DNA of 29,836 nt from assembly GCA_035289485.1 (NCBI GenBank), contig DATDXA010000004.1:1-29836 (forward strand), read 5' to 3'. The notes under the pieces were generated by a model. That model saw only the letters and a program-made list of their open reading frames with translations. It did no database searches and had not been told where the DNA came from. The translations under genes and the position numbers were made by a program. The first letter of the stretch is position 1. Every line of letters starts with the position of its first letter. Below are positions 1 through 10,348 of the stretch, in pieces. This DNA is from an archaeon (GTDB taxonomy: Archaea > Iainarchaeota > Iainarchaeia > Iainarchaeales > Iainarchaeaceae).

Positions 1-1495
1 CTGCTTTTAGGCGGATAAAGGGCTTTCCTAGCCTGTAGAGCTCGGAAAACCTGCGGGAAATACCAAGGGCTTCGGAATGATTCAAAAATATGCTCTGGGA
101 ATTCCCCGCAAGCCGGATAGCCGAACCTGAGGATGAAGCAAGCGAATCAAGCTCTTTTACAATGCCGGCCTTTAGGCACTCTATGGAAACCGCCACATTG
201 CGCTCGAAGAACCGGCTTTGGGGATTTGCAAGGATTGAGGGCAAATCTGAGAGCACCATGGAAATGTTTTCTGCCAAGGCGCGCGCAAAGAAAAAACCGG
301 GATTTGAATCAAGCGACTGCGCAAAGAAAAGCCCTTTTGAAGCCACAGTTGAAACCTGCTCTGACTCAACCCTTTCAGAAAGGGCTGAAAGCATTGCCTT
401 GAGAGAATTTATTTCCTGCGAGAGCCTGCTTTCGGATTTTGAACAGCACCACATTGGCTTTGAATCGCCAGAAATTACTGCGCTGCCATCTGCCTGAAGC
501 GAGAGTGCATCTGCGAGCAGGATTGCGACTTCCTCACCGCGCCCGAATGGGCCTAGGGGATACGAATCATAAAAATACTCGCGCTTCCTTCGCTCGCGCT
601 TCTCTTTATCCTCGTGCGAATCGTGAAATTCCTGCGCCCACGCAGCGGAAGCGGAATTGAAATAGAAGCCTTCCTTTAGAAAACTCACACGGACAAGAGA
701 GGAGGCGAGAACATTCTTATCTGAAAGCGAGAGCGGCCTGCAGCACTCGCAGTTCATGGATTCGAAACCAATATTATTGAAAGGCTGCGCTGCTACAATT
801 GAGACAAGGCGCGAAAAATCAAGCTCTGCGCTTCCGCGCACAGAATGCGAGCGAGGCTTGTTCTCTTTTGGGCCAAATGAGAGTGGCATCGAGCTTGAAA
901 AGAAAATGTTCTCAAGAAAAATCTCTTCTTTGGAAACTTCCGCGTCATTGCCAACAAGCGGGATTTTCAGGATGCGCGAACTTGCTATTCGCCCAATCAA
1001 ATCCTGTGCAAGCGGCTTATTTGAGCGCAAAAGATCCGCAGCGGTATCGGATAGTGCACCGGAAAGGAAATCAAGCGGGAGATTTGGAAAATCGAATGAG
1101 CCAAGCCTCGCAGGTTCACCGTTATTGAACGAGAACGGCTCGAAATATCCCCAGCCCTTTTCAATGAGAAACTGCCTCTGAGGCTCAATAAGGTTTGAAT
1201 GAAAACCGAAGAATTCGGAAAGCAGATTGTTCAGCTTTTTCAAATCCGAAAAAGTCGCCGCGAAAACAATCGCAGTGCCGCCCTCGAAATCTATTTTCAC
1301 GCGCTTCAAATCATACTCCGCAACCGCATCCCTAAAGGATTCTTTTGAAATTCCGCGCAAAGGAAAGAACATGCGCGGGAAAAATGAATAGCGCTTTGAG
1401 TACTTCTCAAACATGTTTGAGAACTCGGCAACTATCTGCCGCTTTTCCGGAACATAGGCGACCCTGCCTAAAAACACGGGCGTGCTTGGGGGCAT
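1..1495 (-). CDS. Degenerate family-B DNA polymerase-like protein, at least 498 aa, 3' end outside the window, predicted inactive
   Basis: Manually translated open frame from ATG 1495 (MPPSTPVFLGRVAY...) to the window edge. It is absent from the ORF track because no stop lies in the window. PolB remnants: IEPQRQFLIEKG (cf. DIPF.RRYLIDKG), ELDFSRLVSIVAAQPFNNIGFESMNCECC (motif A region), MWCCSK and LAGNSQSIFL (cf. YGDTDSIF). A TATA box ends 20 nt upstream of the ATG. Confidence 0.75.
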   Translation of the reverse strand, partial: MPPSTPVFLGRVAYVPEKRQIVAEFSNMFEKYSKRYSFFPRMFFPLRGISKESFRDAVAEYDLKRVKIDFEGGTAIVFAATFSDLKKLNNLLSEFFGFHSNLIEPQRQFLIEKGWGYFEPFSFNNGEPARLGSFDFPNLPLDFLSGALSDTAADLLRSNKPLAQDLIGRIASSRILKIPLVGNDAEVSKEEIFLENIFFSSSMPLSFGPKENKPRSHSVRGSAELDFSRLVSIVAAQPFNNIGFESMNCECCRPLSLSDKNVLASSLVRVSFLKEGFYFNSASAAWAQEFHDSHEDKEKRERRKREYFYDSYPLGPFGRGEEVAILLADALSLQADGSAVISGDSKPMWCCSKSESRLSQEINSLKAMLSALSERVESEQVSTVASKGLFFAQSLDSNPGFFFARALAENISMVLSDLPSILANPQSRFFERNVAVSIECLKAGIVKELDSLASSSGSAIRLAGNSQSIFLNHSEALGISRRFSELYRLGKPFIRLKA

Positions 1496-1515: not shown

Positions 1516-1523
1516 TTTAAAAA
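1516..1523. promoter_or_regulatory. TATA box, possibly bidirectional, for the leaderless PolB-like gene
   Basis: CCTTTAAAAAGG; the minus-strand TTTTTAAA ends 20 nt before ATG 1495. Confidence 0.6.
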
Positions 1524-1626
1524 GGATTTGGAGGGAGTTCGGTGCCGGTGCGGAAGGTAATCTGGATGCAGATAATATGCGCCCGTATTAAAAGCGCGGT
1601 TTTGTTTGAAATTTGCATCCGGCAAT

Positions 1627-4423: not shown

Positions 4424-7400
4424 TCAGAGCAAATCATCCAAATCCTTTGCTGCCGCATCCTTTGTGTCCTCAAAATCGAGCGCGGCCTTTTCAAGCGTCA
4501 TTTCATGGTGCGAATCCTGCGAGAGCTTCTTTCGAACCTTGAAAAAGCACGGGTAGTTCACCGCTTCGCCAACAATTAGCGCTTCGCCTGTTCGCAGAGA
4601 AGTAATCATATCCAAACTGCGATTATCAAGCCCTTCACTTGTTTCTCCGATGTGCTTCAAATCATACGGGTTTGTTACACGCAAAATTATGTGGGTTCCG
4701 CACTGACTAAGAGCGGTTGTAGAAAGGTTTATCGGCCTCTGTGAGATGAGACAAATACCAGCACCGAACTTCCTGCCTTCACGCGCGATTGTTTCAATTA
4801 TGCTTCTGCTAATCGCCCCTTCCTTTGACATTTTCTCTGGTGCCAACTGATGTGCTTCCTCTAAAATCATCGTGAATGGCGGCACGCGCTTTTGCTGGCG
4901 CTCATTGAAGAGCTTGCGCGCGAAATAGGCGACAATTACCTGTTTTTTTTTCATATCAACAATATCGCTTAAATCTACAATCGTTAACCTGCCTGGTTTT
5001 ACTAAATCGTTGATGCTTGGATTGTCTGTTTTTCCAAAAAGCCCAAGCTGCTCAAGTGAAATAATCCAGCCAATAAGCGAATCTTTTGTCGCTGGCTTAA
5101 TTTCAGAATCGCGGCTGATTTCTGCCTTCACCGCGCCAAAATCATACGGGCCCATGCCATCTTTCATTTCCCTTTTCAATTTATCAATAACTCTCCCCAA
5201 ATCCCTTTTCTGCGCGGGGGAAATTCCCGGAACAATGCCCGCAATCATGCCGGCAGAGAGCTTTGGAACGCCTATCTGCACTTCGCTAGCTTTTATGAAG
5301 CGCGAGTTCTGCGAAAAGTCGGTACTGCCTTTGCCCTGCACCGGCTCGGCAAAAGAGCGGTACTCGCCGTGCGCGTCCATAACTATTACCGCAAGGCGGC
5401 CGTGCTCTTTTTTTCTCTGCAAAAGCTCTTCTAGAAGCACGGAAACAAGGTAGCTATTGTGGATAACTACCCCATTTGCAACAAAATTGGAGTTTTCAAC
5501 CGAAAGATCGTATACGTATTTGTAATCCGGATTTACCTTCTTAACGCTTTTCACTTTATCAAAGAATGCATTCATCTCGCAAAATTGCCTAAGCACCTGA
5601 ACCCTTGCCCTTGCCTGAACCAGATTTTGGGAGGATTCATCCGCAATTTTTTTCAGGGAATCGGCAAAAGACACCACTATCGAATGGCTTGCTTCACCCC
5701 TTCCTTTTGAATGGCTATAGAGAAACTGCTTATGGCAACCATTAACTTTGCATAATTCCTCTGTTGAATAGCCAAGAGTTTCACAAATCCTCTTGATTTC
5801 GAAAAGAGTGCTGTTCCGGTTTATGGAACTTGCGGCTTCAAGTTCGGTTAGGCTCTCGCCCCTTATTTTTAATGCATTTTTCGCCAAAAGAAAAACTGTG
5901 TTTTTTGGTGAAGTTATTTGCATGACAACTCGTCTAGCCGTCGTACTTGAAACACCGCTGCCTGCTGCAATTTGATTGAAATCAAAACCGCTTGAGTAAG
6001 CTGTCTTTACTAGTTCAAGTGCCTTCTGCTCTGAAATGTTGGGAACGGTTTGCAAAACCATATTTGCCTGCGCCAAGGCATTTTCAATGCCCTCGGAGCG
6101 CCTTTCAAAAATCCCGAGCAAAGCCCTGAGCGATTTCCTTGAAGGATTGTCTTTGCGGAAAAGGTAATTGTTTATTGCCGAAGACTCTGACTGCGGCTGT
6201 GGCATTTTGAGAAGGGATATTAGTTCCCGGAGATGCTGGTTTATGTTTGGCACTATGTCAATATTGGTATTGGGCTTTGCGGACGCCCATTTTTTCAGTG
6301 CGGATTTTTTGTAATCAATAAGCAAATCCAAATCGTTAAGTTTGGAAATTTCGCCCGAACCGCTTACAAGCACCCGTTGGTATTTTTTACCGTCAACGGT
6401 TTTAATCTTGCGCAGGGTTATTACGCCTAATTTTGCGTATATTTCCTCGATTCCGTCGGCAAGCCTTTTGCTTGAAATTGTTATATCCACTTCTGGCTTG
6501 TCCGGGTTTACATATCCATCGCAATCTATAAAGGATGAGATGAAGTTCTTGAGCACATTCTTTTGGCTTTGAAGAATTTCGGGCGGGATGAATTTTGTCC
6601 AGCTTGAGTTTGTAAAACCGTATTCGTTCAGGCACCTTGCAAGGACCACGGAATCAATTAATAATTCGCCTTTTGATTTGGCCTCTTTAACGTTCAAATT
6701 GAATTTTTCCCCGCATAGGTCTGCAAAATCCCCCCGAATTAAGTGATTCTCGTTGGAAAAGTTTATTCGTGATTTCATGCTATTGTGCCCTTCAGCAAGA
6801 AGATATGCCATAAGCCTTGCGAAACGTTCATCCACATCATGCACTAGCCTTGTAAAAACTTTTGACTGCTTTTGAAGTGCATGGCCATTTTCAATTGTAA
6901 CCATGCGCAATTTTGAAGCGGTTTTTGTAAAATCTATTTTTGACCTTATGCCGTTCCACTCAATCCTTGGCAAAAAAACATGGTCATTTTCTGAAATAGT
7001 TTGTGCCTCTTTCCACTCAATACGCCCATTAAATACAGGCACCAGGTGTTCTGGCGTAACTTCGACTTCTCGCCCGGCTCTTGTTTTTATTCTGACAACA
7101 CGCTCTGGAGCTTTGCGCCGGTAATACCCCAGTATTTTTGCTGGCGATATTTTTCCGGTTAAATTTGAAATAGCGTAGGCACTTGTGCCGAAATCCTGTT
7201 CCCAAAACTCCACCCCGCCATCAACCTTCTTATTTTTTTCGAGGACAGCATCTACAAGCTCGCCAATAGTTTTCTGCGCACTATTCTCAAGAAATATTTT
7301 TGTGTCAGGTTTTGCACATTTACCAGCTCCAGACATTGCAAGGATTGCAAGGTGCTTCTGGAAGAGGCGGGAGAGGTTTAATTTTACTGAAACATCGTGG

Positions 7401-7822
7401 TGCTCGATTTCGCCCAAATAAAGCCCTTTCTCCAAATCAAGGCCGAGGAATTTTTCTAAAGTTTCTCTTGTTGCAATCCTTGCCTTTGTCCCAGGAGACG
7501 GAGGGAAAGTTGAGCGCTTTATCATGCCGTTTTGATAAACCCCCAGAGGGCGGGTTTTTGCAACCAAATACTCCCACTCTCCTGCAGGGAACTGCTCAAA
7601 GAGCTTGAAGCCTGAACTCTCGAATTCCTTGACGCTCTCAAAGCGCTCAAAGTAGCGGTTGGTTTTGTAAACATTTGTAATAAGGCACACCATTGTGCCT
7701 TCGGAGAAATCGAGCTCGACATACTGGCCCCTGTGAAGCTTGCCTGAAGTTATCACCAAATCCAGTTCGCTTGGCGATGGGCCTTCCTCGCTTGAAATTA
7801 CGGTGCCTATTTCTTCAGCCAT
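4424..7822 (-). CDS. herA: HerA DNA translocase/helicase precursor containing an intein (extein about 511 aa)
   Basis: N-terminal HAS-barrel-like region, HLAILAMSGAGK|S Walker A, DAHGEY, ILEEAH Walker B, IAREGRKFG and ISQRP; same strand as and downstream of nurA. Confidence 0.93.
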   Translation of the reverse strand: MAEEIGTVISSEEGPSPSELDLVITSGKLHRGQYVELDFSEGTMVCLITNVYKTNRYFERFESVKEFESSGFKLFEQFPAGEWEYLVAKTRPLGVYQNGMIKRSTFPPSPGTKARIATRETLEKFLGLDLEKGLYLGEIEHHDVSVKLNLSRLFQKHLAILAMSGAGKCAKPDTKIFLENSAQKTIGELVDAVLEKNKKVDGGVEFWEQDFGTSAYAISNLTGKISPAKILGYYRRKAPERVVRIKTRAGREVEVTPEHLVPVFNGRIEWKEAQTISENDHVFLPRIEWNGIRSKIDFTKTASKLRMVTIENGHALQKQSKVFTRLVHDVDERFARLMAYLLAEGHNSMKSRINFSNENHLIRGDFADLCGEKFNLNVKEAKSKGELLIDSVVLARCLNEYGFTNSSWTKFIPPEILQSQKNVLKNFISSFIDCDGYVNPDKPEVDITISSKRLADGIEEIYAKLGVITLRKIKTVDGKKYQRVLVSGSGEISKLNDLDLLIDYKKSALKKWASAKPNTNIDIVPNINQHLRELISLLKMPQPQSESSAINNYLFRKDNPSRKSLRALLGIFERRSEGIENALAQANMVLQTVPNISEQKALELVKTAYSSGFDFNQIAAGSGVSSTTARRVVMQITSPKNTVFLLAKNALKIRGESLTELEAASSINRNSTLFEIKRICETLGYSTEELCKVNGCHKQFLYSHSKGRGEASHSIVVSFADSLKKIADESSQNLVQARARVQVLRQFCEMNAFFDKVKSVKKVNPDYKYVYDLSVENSNFVANGVVIHNSYLVSVLLEELLQRKKEHGRLAVIVMDAHGEYRSFAEPVQGKGSTDFSQNSRFIKASEVQIGVPKLSAGMIAGIVPGISPAQKRDLGRVIDKLKREMKDGMGPYDFGAVKAEISRDSEIKPATKDSLIGWIISLEQLGLFGKTDNPSINDLVKPGRLTIVDLSDIVDMKKKQVIVAYFARKLFNERQQKRVPPFTMILEEAHQLAPEKMSKEGAISRSIIETIAREGRKFGAGICLISQRPINLSTTALSQCGTHIILRVTNPYDLKHIGETSEGLDNRSLDMITSLRTGEALIVGEAVNYPCFFKVRKKLSQDSHHEMTLEKAALDFEDTKDAAAKDLDDLL
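5456..7318 (-). mobile_element. Intein (621 aa) with a LAGLIDADG homing endonuclease and extra HTH-like segments, inserted in the HerA Walker A
   Basis: Starts with Cys after GK (CAKPDTKI); block B VTPEHLV; LAGLIDADG motifs MAYLLAEGH and FISSFIDCDG; block F/G YVYDLSV...FVANGVVIHN followed by the extein Ser. Confidence 0.95.
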
Positions 7823-8295
7823 CGGTTCACCCGCCCTAAAGTAACTAAAGATTTCGCCTTCCCTTTATCAAGTGCAGTCAATTTTCTTCGTGGACTAATA
7901 TGTTTCAATGGCAGTTTTATTCTGCCAGCCTTCGCCTCGGTGTAATAATGTGAAACAAAACTCCCGGCATACGCGCCAGAATCACAACAAACAACTGTTT
8001 TTTTCCCCGAACTCACAAGTGACCATGCTTTCATGCCAATCCATTTTGCAGGGTCGTTCAAACTGTTCGAGCGCCTAAATAACCAAGCTGAAGGTATAAG
8101 CATAATTCCGTTTTCTTTGCAAAAAGTTGGAAACCCTGACGGCGCTGGTTTAACAGTAATTATAGCGCGAATTCCGAGTTCCTTATATTTTTCCCAAAAT
8201 GGCAACTGTGGAAGTATCGTTACCGGCCCAGTATAAAAATTGTCGTCGTGCTGCACTATTGCAATAGAACTCGTTCCAACAGGTATTTTCTGCAC
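7807..8295 (-). CDS. Dual-specificity/PTP-fold phosphatase-like protein lacking the CX5R arginine
   Basis: ELGIRAIITV and GKKTVVCCDSGAYAGS resemble the DSP GI..VI.L and GKKVLVHCxxGxxRS motifs; GTG start; overlaps the herA start by 16 nt. Confidence 0.55.
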   Translation of the reverse strand: MQKIPVGTSSIAIVQHDDNFYTGPVTILPQLPFWEKYKELGIRAIITVKPAPSGFPTFCKENGIMLIPSAWLFRRSNSLNDPAKWIGMKAWSLVSSGKKTVVCCDSGAYAGSFVSHYYTEAKAGRIKLPLKHISPRRKLTALDKGKAKSLVTLGRVNRWLKK

Positions 8296-9122: not shown

Positions 9123-10220
9123 TTAAAACGGCCTGTTGTCCCTTCTCATTTTCAGCTTTATCGAAGAGCCGAGCTTATCGAGGATTTTATTGGAAATAAT
9201 TTCTATCTCATCATTGCGAAGCTTTGCGTGCATATCTGCTTCTATTAGAACCGTTGGGTATGCGTACTCGCGGTGCATGCAGCTAAGGGCGAATGCAACA
9301 GAGGAAACTTCATCTGCGGTTTTCCGAAGATTTGCAGGGTCTTTGCAGATGAACTCAACGCGCAGTGGCCTGTCAAATAGCGAAGGCTTGATGTAGAGGC
9401 CGTAGATGTGCTCTCCCCACTTTGCATCAAAATCCTGAAGCACTGGATGCTGCTTGATGTTTTTTGTGTAAGTGAAGGCGCAGCTGCGCTCTCCGAGCGC
9501 GAGGAAATAATCAAGCAGGGAAGAATCGAAAAAACCCTCAAGGTCTTCTGAAGGCATCACGTTCTCATAAGGGAGAATGCCTTCCTGCAGAATCTGCCGG
9601 AAGCGCGAGCCCCTGCTGTCCTCAACTGTTGAAATGAGCGTGCACCCTTTTTCTTCTGCAAGAGCATACAGTGATTGGAATTCGTGCACGATATCGGAAT
9701 AATTTTTTGTAAGCCCTGATTCCTTGCGCGGCTTGTCCTGAAACTGGGGCACAATAGAGCCGTCTATGAAAAGATACTTAGGAGAGTGCTCTGCAATTAT
9801 TTTCTTTGCGGTGTTCACTTCCTCGCGCAATCTCATAAGGCTCTTGCTCTGCTCTGCCTCGTCCTCTTCTAGTGAACCTGAACTTAAATGCGGCTCTGGA
9901 AAGTGGAAAAAATCGGGAAAATATTTTGCAGAGGAGATTTTGCCATCCGCATAATCAAAAACAACGCCCACTGCACGGATAAGAACCAAATCAACTGAAG
10001 CAAGGCGCTTTGCAACAAAACCGGAATCAACTCCCGCGACAAGCCCCTGCGGAACCCAGCGTGGGACCTTATACGCAAGGAACTCCTCTGCAAGGTCAAA
10101 GCCGTTGGATACGAACTTTCTTGTTTTGAGGGGCGCAAACTTTTCCGCGGCGGCCTTCTTTCTTTGCTCACCGGAATGGATAGCTTTTACGGTCTGGTCT
10201 ATTACCGAAGTAATGCCCAT
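9123..10220 (-). CDS. nurA: NurA 5'-3' nuclease
   Basis: VAGVDSG, RLREEV, FIDGSI, RVE and YAYPTVLIEADMHAK motifs. Start reassigned to ATG 10220 (MGITSVID), 20 nt below a TTTAAAAA box. Confidence 0.92.
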   Translation of the reverse strand: MGITSVIDQTVKAIHSGEQRKKAAAEKFAPLKTRKFVSNGFDLAEEFLAYKVPRWVPQGLVAGVDSGFVAKRLASVDLVLIRAVGVVFDYADGKISSAKYFPDFFHFPEPHLSSGSLEEDEAEQSKSLMRLREEVNTAKKIIAEHSPKYLFIDGSIVPQFQDKPRKESGLTKNYSDIVHEFQSLYALAEEKGCTLISTVEDSRGSRFRQILQEGILPYENVMPSEDLEGFFDSSLLDYFLALGERSCAFTYTKNIKQHPVLQDFDAKWGEHIYGLYIKPSLFDRPLRVEFICKDPANLRKTADEVSSVAFALSCMHREYAYPTVLIEADMHAKLRNDEIEIISNKILDKLGSSIKLKMRRDNRPF

Positions 10221-10250: not shown

Positions 10251-10272
10251 AAGCGCAGGGTTCGGTGCCGGT

Positions 10273-10348
10273 GCCAAACCCGACCTGCTCGTCGGGAGGG
10301 AGCGTCCGCCTCGCTTGAGCTCAGCAGGACTGAAAGTCATTGTTTGGC
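10273..10348 (+). ncRNA. Putative structured RNA element, copy A
   Basis: GCCAAAC/GTTTGGC closing stem, CCCGAC-ctgctc-GTCGGG and GAGCG-tccgcct-CGCTT hairpins; homologous to 14646-14704 (-) and 19635-19691 (+). Confidence 0.55.

Follow-up and report, generated by a model that had tools for sequence, protein, structure and literature searches.

The stretch of DNA analysed here (the window, 29,836 bases) is the beginning of contig C4 (DATDXA010000004.1) in a 1.16-Mb genome assembly of 64 contigs, 90% complete (GCA_035289485.1), from an archaeon of the Iainarchaeota, a DPANN phylum, as an earlier note made from these letters alone had supposed. At the left edge of the window, the listing of open reading frames (ORFs) contains an unbroken minus-strand frame of 498 codons that starts with ATG at 1495..1493 and is still open where the window begins. 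The earlier note had claimed a frame of at least 498 codons at this place and had read it as a derivative of a family-B DNA polymerase (PolB) without exonuclease domain and catalytic residues; we refer to the gene and its product as PolB-like. The gene is encoded inside or next to a herA-rad50-nurA cluster, in the order ef1b (+), rad50 (+), rps17e (−), rpoK (−), PolB-like (−), a 221-amino-acid (aa) ORF (−), a VTT/DedA gene (−), a glycosyltransferase gene (+), herA with an intein (−), a 162-aa ORF (−), a PIN gene (−) and nurA (−).

In this order, rad50, rps17e and rpoK are placed beside the window by a contig join. One end of contig C5 (C5:51888-52028) is identical to window positions 1-141 over exactly 141 bases, such that C5 and C4 can be joined, and the join appears sound because the genes that follow the PolB-like gene on C5 (rpoK, rps17e and then rad50 in convergent orientation) match the followers in related genomes. 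On C5, the PolB-like frame gains two codons and then reaches a stop (..RLKAGL*), for a full protein of 500 aa; P0001, a relative with 97% identity, also has 500 residues and the same C-terminal ending. Thus, the suggestion that the frame should be extended past the window edge held insofar as it continues onto C5, but the extension amounts to two codons only. Because the ORF is complete at 500 aa, the thumb domain discussed below is truly absent rather than merely located beyond the edge. Searches for relatives of the protein yielded 20 close sequences and, out of 1.84 billion, 157 representatives at a clustering level of 50%, nearly all of about 500 aa and annotated as hypothetical proteins, with 546 residues in the longest of the representatives listed; given this number of relatives of nearly constant length, the frame is not a chance ORF.

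When compared with libraries of known families, the PolB-like protein matched no Pfam or NCBIfam family even at E ≤ 10, and 20 relatives matched no PolB model of Pfam at E ≤ 1. Against the sequences of the PDB, the family profile found nothing and the single protein just one chance-level match (E = 2.4), and the ESM Atlas contains the sequence with neither a model nor a usable neighbour. However, the predicted structure is that of a family-B polymerase. An AlphaFold model made with the family alignment (predicted local distance difference test, pLDDT, 89.0; predicted template modelling score, pTM, 0.89) gave 151 Foldseek matches in the PDB at E ≤ 0.001 (best E = 7.5 × 10−8), and all 50 matches listed are family-B polymerases. 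In VIA, a comparison independent of Foldseek, PolBs fill the top 17 rows; the best match, P. calidifontis PolB (5mdn_B), has Z 23.9 and a root mean square deviation (rmsd) of 5.5 Å over 382 aligned residues, with model residues 5..498 covering positions 1..591 of the 761 in the chain. The N-terminal 198 residues (model 7..198) align in VIA with yeast Pol2 over its N-terminal domain (6s1c_A; Z 10.2, 181 aligned residues), and this match is spread over chain positions 77..524, skipping the exonuclease domain.

The same relationship was recovered with hhalign when 94 full-length family members (19-97% identical to the window copy) were compared with 31 PolBs of this DPANN lineage: family residues 152-495 align with PolB residues 332-602 at a probability of 98.8% (E = 1.1 × 10−16). 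For the N-terminal 150 residues, the hhalign match is weak (E = 0.002, probability 13%) and co-linear, pairing FFPxMFF with FxPYFYV and IEPERQFLIEKGW with DIPFAxRYLIDKxL. The N-terminal domain, the palm and the fingers are thus kept in the canonical order, and the motifs stand in PolB order as the earlier note had it, with LDFS on motif A and GNSQS on motif C. Its residue assignments also proved accurate, namely D226 at 818..820, GNSQS (residues 464-468) at 92..106, IEPQRQFLIEKG at residues 103-114, and the cysteines C249, C251, C252, C350 and C351. With Foldseek, VIA and hhalign all identifying a family-B polymerase fold, the model and the alignments together indicate that the PolB-like protein is a PolB derivative by descent as well as by fold. 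The genome also encodes a canonical 803-aa PolB (on contig C3) and PolD. Descent from the lineage's own B3-type PolB appears probable, the 'KNVxP' motif and the cysteine pattern being common to both; the lineage's PolB is classed as group B3 by Kazlauskas et al. (PMC7544198). Several PolBs of related genomes are about 1220 aa long and contain intein domains.

Compared with canonical PolBs, the PolB-like protein has undergone extensive losses, most of which, though not that of the thumb, the earlier note had noticed. The region of PolB at about 152-331, which holds Exo I and Exo II, has no counterpart and is replaced by a linker of about 29 residues. At the other end, the family stops at about PolB residue 602 of 803, such that some 200 PolB residues, which make up the thumb and the last part of the palm, are uncovered, a loss that adds to the missing exonuclease domain. 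In motif A, D226 aligns with PolB D432, and the SLYPS part, including the position of the steric-gate tyrosine, is gone. Motif B (KxxxNSxYG) is absent as claimed, with its Lys, Asn, Ser, Tyr and Gly replaced by S412, S416, D417, P419 and S420, respectively. Motif C, 'NDTDS' in the PolBs, reads GNSQS, so that N465 and Q467 occupy the positions of the catalytic D570 and D572. In all, five of seven features of family-B enzymes are lacking (exonuclease domain, motif B, motif C, thumb and a profile match), whereas the fold is present and motif A is kept in part. With neither exonuclease domain nor thumb, and with motifs B and C stripped of their catalytic residues, the protein is most likely unable to polymerise DNA.

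Between 'KNVLxSS' and 'W-x-C', the family carries about 85 residues that are not in PolB, confirming that the extra residues before MWCCSK are a true insertion. This insertion is bracketed by cysteines, of which C249 and C252 align with PolB C453 and C458. Residues 236-360 folded alone (45 sequences) yielded a small beta module with a two-helix hairpin (pLDDT 91.3). In VIA, archaeal GINS B-domains are the first matches of the isolated insertion (3anw_A and 5ghr_B, both at Z 5.8; for 5ghr_B, rmsd 1.9 Å over 53 of its 55 residues), followed by S. solfataricus and eukaryotic GINS subunits, and the top 12 Foldseek rows are all GINS subunits or GINS-containing complexes (E 0.3-1.2). An hhalign comparison with the lineage GINS placed residues 314-343 on GINS 154-183 (E = 1.2 × 10−4, probability 55%, 30 columns), with a common core, GPF..G...LP..A..L. 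The fold and profile matches point, modestly, to a GINS-B-like module. The genome's own GINS is a 183-aa protein that keeps its B-domain, and GINS was found in 61/61 sampled genomes; in clade f32 (e.g. G186:C27:5583-6302), GINS matches in two pieces within one frame of 233-281 aa, suggestive of an insertion between the A and B domains. In Pol epsilon, a cysteine cluster and a P-domain are likewise inserted in the palm after motif A, which is a topological analogy only; homology of the insertion with the P-domain was considered and rejected, as no Pol epsilon P-domain is among the listed fold matches of the isolated module.

Table 1 Features of the PolB-like gene and protein, its promoter and conserved upstream neighbours (window coordinates; residues of the 500-aa protein).
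Feature	Position	Strand	Basis or remark
PolB-like gene, whole	2..1495	−	498 codons in the window plus 2 codons and stop on C5; 500 aa
PolB N-terminal domain, first part, residues 1-122, including FFPxMFF and IEPQRQFLIEKGW (residues 103-115)	1130..1495	−	VIA match to PolB N-terminal domains; weak co-linear hhalign
Linker, residues 123-151, in place of the PolB 3'-5' exonuclease domain (Exo I, II)	1043..1129	−	Model, hhalign
N-terminal domain, helical second part, residues 152-215; Ser158 and Leu162 at the equivalents of Exo III Tyr and Asp	851..1042	−	hhalign
Motif A remnant L-D-F-S, residues 225-228; SLYPS part lost	812..823	−	hhalign and family alignment
C249-E-C251-C252, three invariant Cys, on the PolB C453..C458 site	740..751	−	hhalign; 94/94 each
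Insertion, residues 253-348, without PolB counterpart: GINS-B-domain-like beta module and helical hairpin	452..739	−	Alignment, fold
W349-C350-C351; invariant C351 closes the cysteine clamp, on PolB W-F-C472	443..451	−	hhalign, 94/94
Fingers helices, residues 357-423; motif B equivalents S412 (Lys), S416 (Asn), P419 (Tyr), S420 (Gly)	227..427	−	Model, hhalign
Palm, second part, residues 432-498; protein ends where the PolB thumb would start	2..202	−	VIA, hhalign
Motif C remnant G-N-S-Q-S, residues 464-468; both catalytic Asp replaced (N465, Q467)	92..106	−	hhalign
TATA-like box TTTTTAAA, some 24 nt from the ATG, just downstream of the promoter word	1516..1523	−	Read from the sequence; presumed role
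Promoter word CACCGGCACCGAACTCCCT before the PolB-like gene	1532..1550	−	Common to nurA, radA, hef, uvrB, mcm, RecJ/GAN and LAGLIDADG genes
herA, intein-containing, conserved upstream neighbour	4424..7822	−	
nurA, 365 aa from ATG at 10220; heads the nurA-PIN-ORF162-herA array upstream of the PolB-like gene	9126..10220	−	
Promoter word copy upstream of nurA	10256..10273	−	18/18 consensus match

Analysis of the 94-sequence alignment shows a consistent pattern, whereby the most constrained region of the family is the cysteine-flanked insertion and not the palm. C249, C251, C252, C351, P40, F109, R300, G315 and P316 are invariant (94/94); W349 and D329 (92/94 each), H291 (91/94) and E195 are nearly so, and H291, R300, G315-P316-F317 and D329, all of them invariant or nearly invariant, lie in the insertion. 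The proposal that the Cys cluster is kept as a metal site fits the four cysteines conserved in 94/94, which, together with the near-invariant histidine, hold the base of the module and probably bind a metal. The catalytic positions present the opposite picture. Asp is found at 226 in 75/94 sequences (Asn in 12/94), at motif C position 465 in 9/94 and, at position 467, not among the seven commonest residues, and the motif B lysine is kept in 7/94. Judging from this alignment, the loss of the catalytic residues is old and common to the whole family, and both aspartates of motif C, as the note had reported for the window copy, are gone family-wide.

A profile search found the gene in 176/215 Iainarchaeota genomes and in 52/58 high-quality ones, with one internal stop each in 3 of the 150 matches listed. 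It was not found in clade f2 (0/7) nor, by elimination from the tallies, in genomes G195-G213; retention is near-universal within one order-level clade. The survey of homologues that the earlier note had called for thus gave a clear result, as the catalytic losses are family-wide and the frame is unbroken in nearly every genome, so that it is not a recently decayed pseudogene. Using the alignment of 20 sequences as the query, we collected 64 related loci at the species level, and nearly all of the named records among these belong to Candidatus Iainarchaeum; the type genome is one of them, as is a chromosome of 1.05 Mb that is closed.

The region upstream of the PolB-like gene contains an operator-like word of about 20 nt followed by a TATA-like box (Table 1), in a geometry that suggests a leaderless transcript. 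Genome-wide, there are 11 sites of this word at no more than 3 mismatches, whereas 30 shuffles gave 0.47 on average and 2 at most; at no more than 4 mismatches, there are 29 sites compared to 5.9 in shuffles. Altogether, the core is accompanied by an A/T box close by at 32 sites, and at 14 of these, the first base of the word is followed 53-57 nt later by a start codon. The genes 3' of the word include nurA, PolB-like, hef/XPF, radA, uvrB, mcm, a RecJ/GAN-type DHH protein with a CID domain and six free-standing LAGLIDADG genes; among the 20 downstream ORFs checked against Pfam, there are also a PIN gene, an acylphosphatase gene and six without an assigned family. In relatives, at least 12 of the 18 positions of the word are matched at −56 to −58 from the start of the PolB-like gene in 16/52 loci compared to 1/52 control windows, and more distant lineages show a variant form at the same place. 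Lying at a fixed distance from the TATA boxes that follow it, the word marks a putative regulon of about 32 sites. An 18-mer identical to that of the PolB-like promoter, also with a TATA box, is present at C31:58245 (+) (locus L003), where no ORF of at least 40 aa was found within 160 nt downstream and no Rfam match was detected; this copy may drive a small unannotated transcript. A near-copy (2 mismatches) lies inverted within the herA coding region, at 4757-4774 (+).

The gene neighbourhood is conserved as well. Within 8 kb of the PolB-like gene in the 64 related loci, HerA was found in 55, Rad50 and S17e in 49 each, RpoK in 48, and NurA and EF1B in 40 each. The gene upstream on the same strand is herA in 49/63 of the loci, and in 14 the gap is 300 nt or less. 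The start of nurA is probably the ATG at 10220, 53 nt after its promoter word, rather than the upstream ATG at 10340 given by the ORF finder. An intein with a LAGLIDADG endonuclease domain is present in herA and also in mcm (C51:284-3814). No family match was obtained for the ORFs at 1627-2292 (−) (221 aa) and 7807-8295 (−) (162 aa), and the former, directly upstream of the PolB-like gene, had no tblastn match in the 64 related loci. A role as a substitute for Mre11 was ruled out, as a 406-aa Mre11 is encoded on another contig (C62; L072:913-2133, −), unlinked from rad50, herA and nurA and beside two genes for HAD-type phosphatases.

These observations are, in our judgement, best explained if the PolB-like protein is a non-catalytic accessory of DNA repair or recombination that acts as a DNA-binding or adaptor protein, a reading to which we assign about an even chance; metal binding, DNA binding, docking and the repair role itself are all inferred. 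Under this scenario, an ancestral PolB would have shed its exonuclease domain and its thumb and lost catalytic residues in motifs B and C while keeping the N-terminal domain, the palm and the fingers, and would have gained, in a palm loop between two ancestral cysteines, a docking-type GINS-B-like module of about 85 residues. The four invariant cysteines and the near-invariant histidine would grip the base of this module and probably bind a metal. Expression would proceed from the gene's own leaderless promoter, which carries the operator-like word common to repair genes; the polymerase remnant would bind DNA, at a 3' end or where single strand meets duplex, with the inserted module as the docking site for a partner protein.

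Several observations weigh against the repair-accessory reading. RpoK and S17e are neighbours as constant as the repair genes (48/64 and 49/64), and in a rearranged clade (locus L047), unrelated genes part the PolB-like gene from nurA and herA, so that this clade lends no independent support; moreover, synteny within one phylum of small genomes can reflect inherited order rather than function. Other genes preceded by the word are mcm, many for homing endonucleases and some without an obvious role in DNA metabolism, and the regulon that it marks is broader than repair. Co-loss with NurA, or co-occurrence with the end-resection cluster, was not seen: NurA is present in 185/215 genomes, including all those of f2 (7/7) and most of G196-G213, which have no PolB-like gene. 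NurA-HerA therefore works without the PolB-like protein, which would be an accessory. A close orthologue of RecJ/GAN was not found with the query used (E ≤ 10−20) in 10/41 genomes, all 10 of which carry the PolB-like gene; hence, GAN cannot be a universal partner. The likeness of the insertion to GINS B-domains is modest by each measure (Z 5.8; Foldseek E 0.3-1.2; hhalign probability 55%). A predicted complex of the insertion module with the genome's RecJ/GAN-type protein scored 0.00 against a mark of 0.32, in a comparison that had no controls and counts neither way. Finally, D226 of motif A is kept in 75/94 sequences, and PolB2, too, was once called dead and later reported to be active (PMC8764526).

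The main rival is a role at the replication fork, with the dead polymerase serving as a replisome subunit whose GINS-B-like module uses the sites of the Gins51 B-domain, that is, GAN/Cdc45 or the N-terminus of the DP1 subunit of PolD; we consider this possible but rather unlikely. It draws on the GINS B-domains being the best fold and profile matches of the insertion, on the documented partners of these domains, GAN and DP1N (PMC5100581, PMC9023282), on the same promoter word before mcm and the CID-bearing RecJ/GAN gene, on the presence of PolD, PolB, GINS and MCM in the genome, and on Pol epsilon as a precedent for a dead PolB that is an essential scaffold (PMC7544198). However, the lineage GINS keeps its own B-domain and is present in 61/61 genomes, so there is no gap to fill; the PolB-like gene sits with nurA, herA and rad50, away from replication genes; whole clades (f2, G196-G213) replicate without it; and the lack of a detected RecJ/GAN in 10 gene-bearing genomes counts here as well. 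A tentative proposal, to which we would give no greater weight, is that the protein is a stand-alone archaeal adaptor resembling Pol epsilon, derived from a polymerase that lost catalysis, proofreading and thumb. Its acquired GINS-type docking domain, fixed by a clamp of cysteines and metal, would mimic or compete with GINS and thereby bring RecJ/GAN-Cdc45, PolD or another partner to broken or stalled DNA processed by NurA-HerA.

It is improbable that the protein is still an enzyme, for example an unconventional polymerase, primase, terminal transferase or nuclease acting through D226 and other conserved acidic residues as substitutes for the missing aspartates of motif C. Precedents exist, as PolB2/Dpo2 was predicted to be inactive and yet works in translesion synthesis (PMC8764526), and primer-independent PolBs are described as active without the first Asp of motif C (PMC7544198); within the family, D226 is Asp in 75/94, E195 is nearly invariant and D329 is Asp in 92/94. 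On the other hand, D226 is Asn or another residue in 19/94, D329 lies in the inserted module, outside the palm active site, and the conserved core of the family is the insertion and not the palm. Also missing are both motif C aspartates, the Lys, Asn, Tyr and Gly of motif B, the thumb in its entirety and the palm's C-terminal end. Of the two roles that the earlier note had offered, a DNA-binding scaffold or a regulator, the former survives in the shape of a non-catalytic DNA-binding or adaptor protein. A sequence-specific regulator that recognises the promoter word and governs the repair regulon along with its own gene is very unlikely. Polymerase folds bind DNA without sequence specificity, and no helix-turn-helix or similar domain was detected in the Pfam, NCBIfam and VIA searches. 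To be sure, the word stands before the PolB-like gene itself, an arrangement typical of autoregulated genes. When the region upstream of nurA was scored with a weight matrix trained on this genome (−85..−25 window; threshold at the 95th percentile of 248 control windows), a word above the threshold was found in 6/16 genomes with the PolB-like gene, in 0/7 genomes of f2, where the gene is also missing (0/7), and in 2/8 genomes of other orders without the gene (G212 and G200). Although the f2 genomes are compatible with a regulator, the rate in the latter group is near that seen with the gene, and the presence of the word without the PolB-like protein makes this protein an unlikely regulator of it. 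As for a decaying relic, a functionless, pseudogene-like remnant of a duplicated PolB, the loss of the catalytic motifs and the deletion of two domains are what would be expected; however, the frames of about 500 aa are intact across relatives 19-97% identical to the window copy, the gene is present in 52/58 high-quality genomes of a phylum with genomes of about 1 Mb, and there are invariant residues and a conserved promoter. This conservation refutes the relic, which we consider hardly credible.

The family also bears on a broader issue. Inactivated polymerases that survive as scaffolds are central to ideas on the origin of the eukaryotic replisome, through the dead half of Pol epsilon, whereas few inactivated polymerases are known in prokaryotes, and the best-known of these, PolB2, turned out to be active. 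The PolB-like family, which is absent from the Pfam and NCBIfam profile libraries, is almost universal in a phylum whose genomes, at about 1 Mb, retain little that serves no purpose. In it, a polymerase remnant is joined to a docking module of GINS type, and the gene is an apparent member of a DNA repair regulon. It provides a small, expressible protein in which to ask what a polymerase fold does after catalysis, and a way into the DNA repair of uncultivated DPANN archaea. Were the adaptor resembling Pol epsilon to be real, it would be a natural example of dead polymerases bridging replication and repair machines. A literature search that included the accessible parts of PMC7544198, PMC4104785 and PMC12680538 found no description of the family; in the visible entries of the supplement of the 2020 PolB survey (PMC7544198), Candidatus Iainarchaeum andersonii appears only with a B3 PolB and DP1, and the family member on AQRS01000029.1 is not among these entries.

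In comparison with known systems, the canonical archaeal PolBs of group B3 (the genome's own 803-aa PolB, P. calidifontis 5MDN and P. abyssi 4FLT) and E. coli Pol II (3K57) share the fold and the domain order, together with the landmarks FxPxFY, IP/EPxxRxxLI, LDFxS, a C...C pair around 'KNVxP', WFC and SRW/FY. The PolB-like protein differs from these in having no exonuclease domain, no thumb and none of the motif B and C residues, in its length of 500 aa compared to about 800, and in the clamped insertion of about 85 aa. To the C-terminal B-domain of GINS (archaeal Gins51; 3ANW, 5GHR), the insertion shows a modest likeness in fold and in the GPF..G...LP..A..L core; it differs in its place within a polymerase palm, in the two-helix hairpin that breaks it up and in its clamp of four cysteines.

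PolB2/Dpo2, long called 'inactivated', is likewise a PolB paralogue additional to the replicative enzymes, in which the exonuclease and polymerase motifs have degenerated and which is tied to DNA damage (PMC4104785, PMC7544198, PMC8764526). It keeps one Asp of motif C, and a D(K/R) motif has been proposed to stand in for the second (PMC7544198); it is an active translesion extender (PMC8764526). Unlike PolB2, the PolB-like family conserves Asp at neither position of motif C; it also lacks the thumb and carries a GINS-like insertion. The chordopoxvirus F12 protein and the helicase-fused inactivated PolBs of the Polinton type (PMC4304020, PMC5499653) are also described as PolBs reused after the loss of catalysis, but these are viral or eukaryotic and differ in domain content. 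The inactive C-terminal half of Pol epsilon (Tahirov 2009, PMC2669801; PMC7544198) is a dead PolB that is reported to be kept as a non-enzymatic part of a machine that handles DNA and to contact the CMG helicase, which includes GINS. In that half, an exonuclease-polymerase module persists in degenerate form, with an active polymerase and a zinc-finger tail as fusion partners, whereas the PolB-like protein stands alone and is far more reduced, so the likeness between the two is one of analogy only; among the PolB derivatives that we could find described, the PolB-like protein would be the most reduced.

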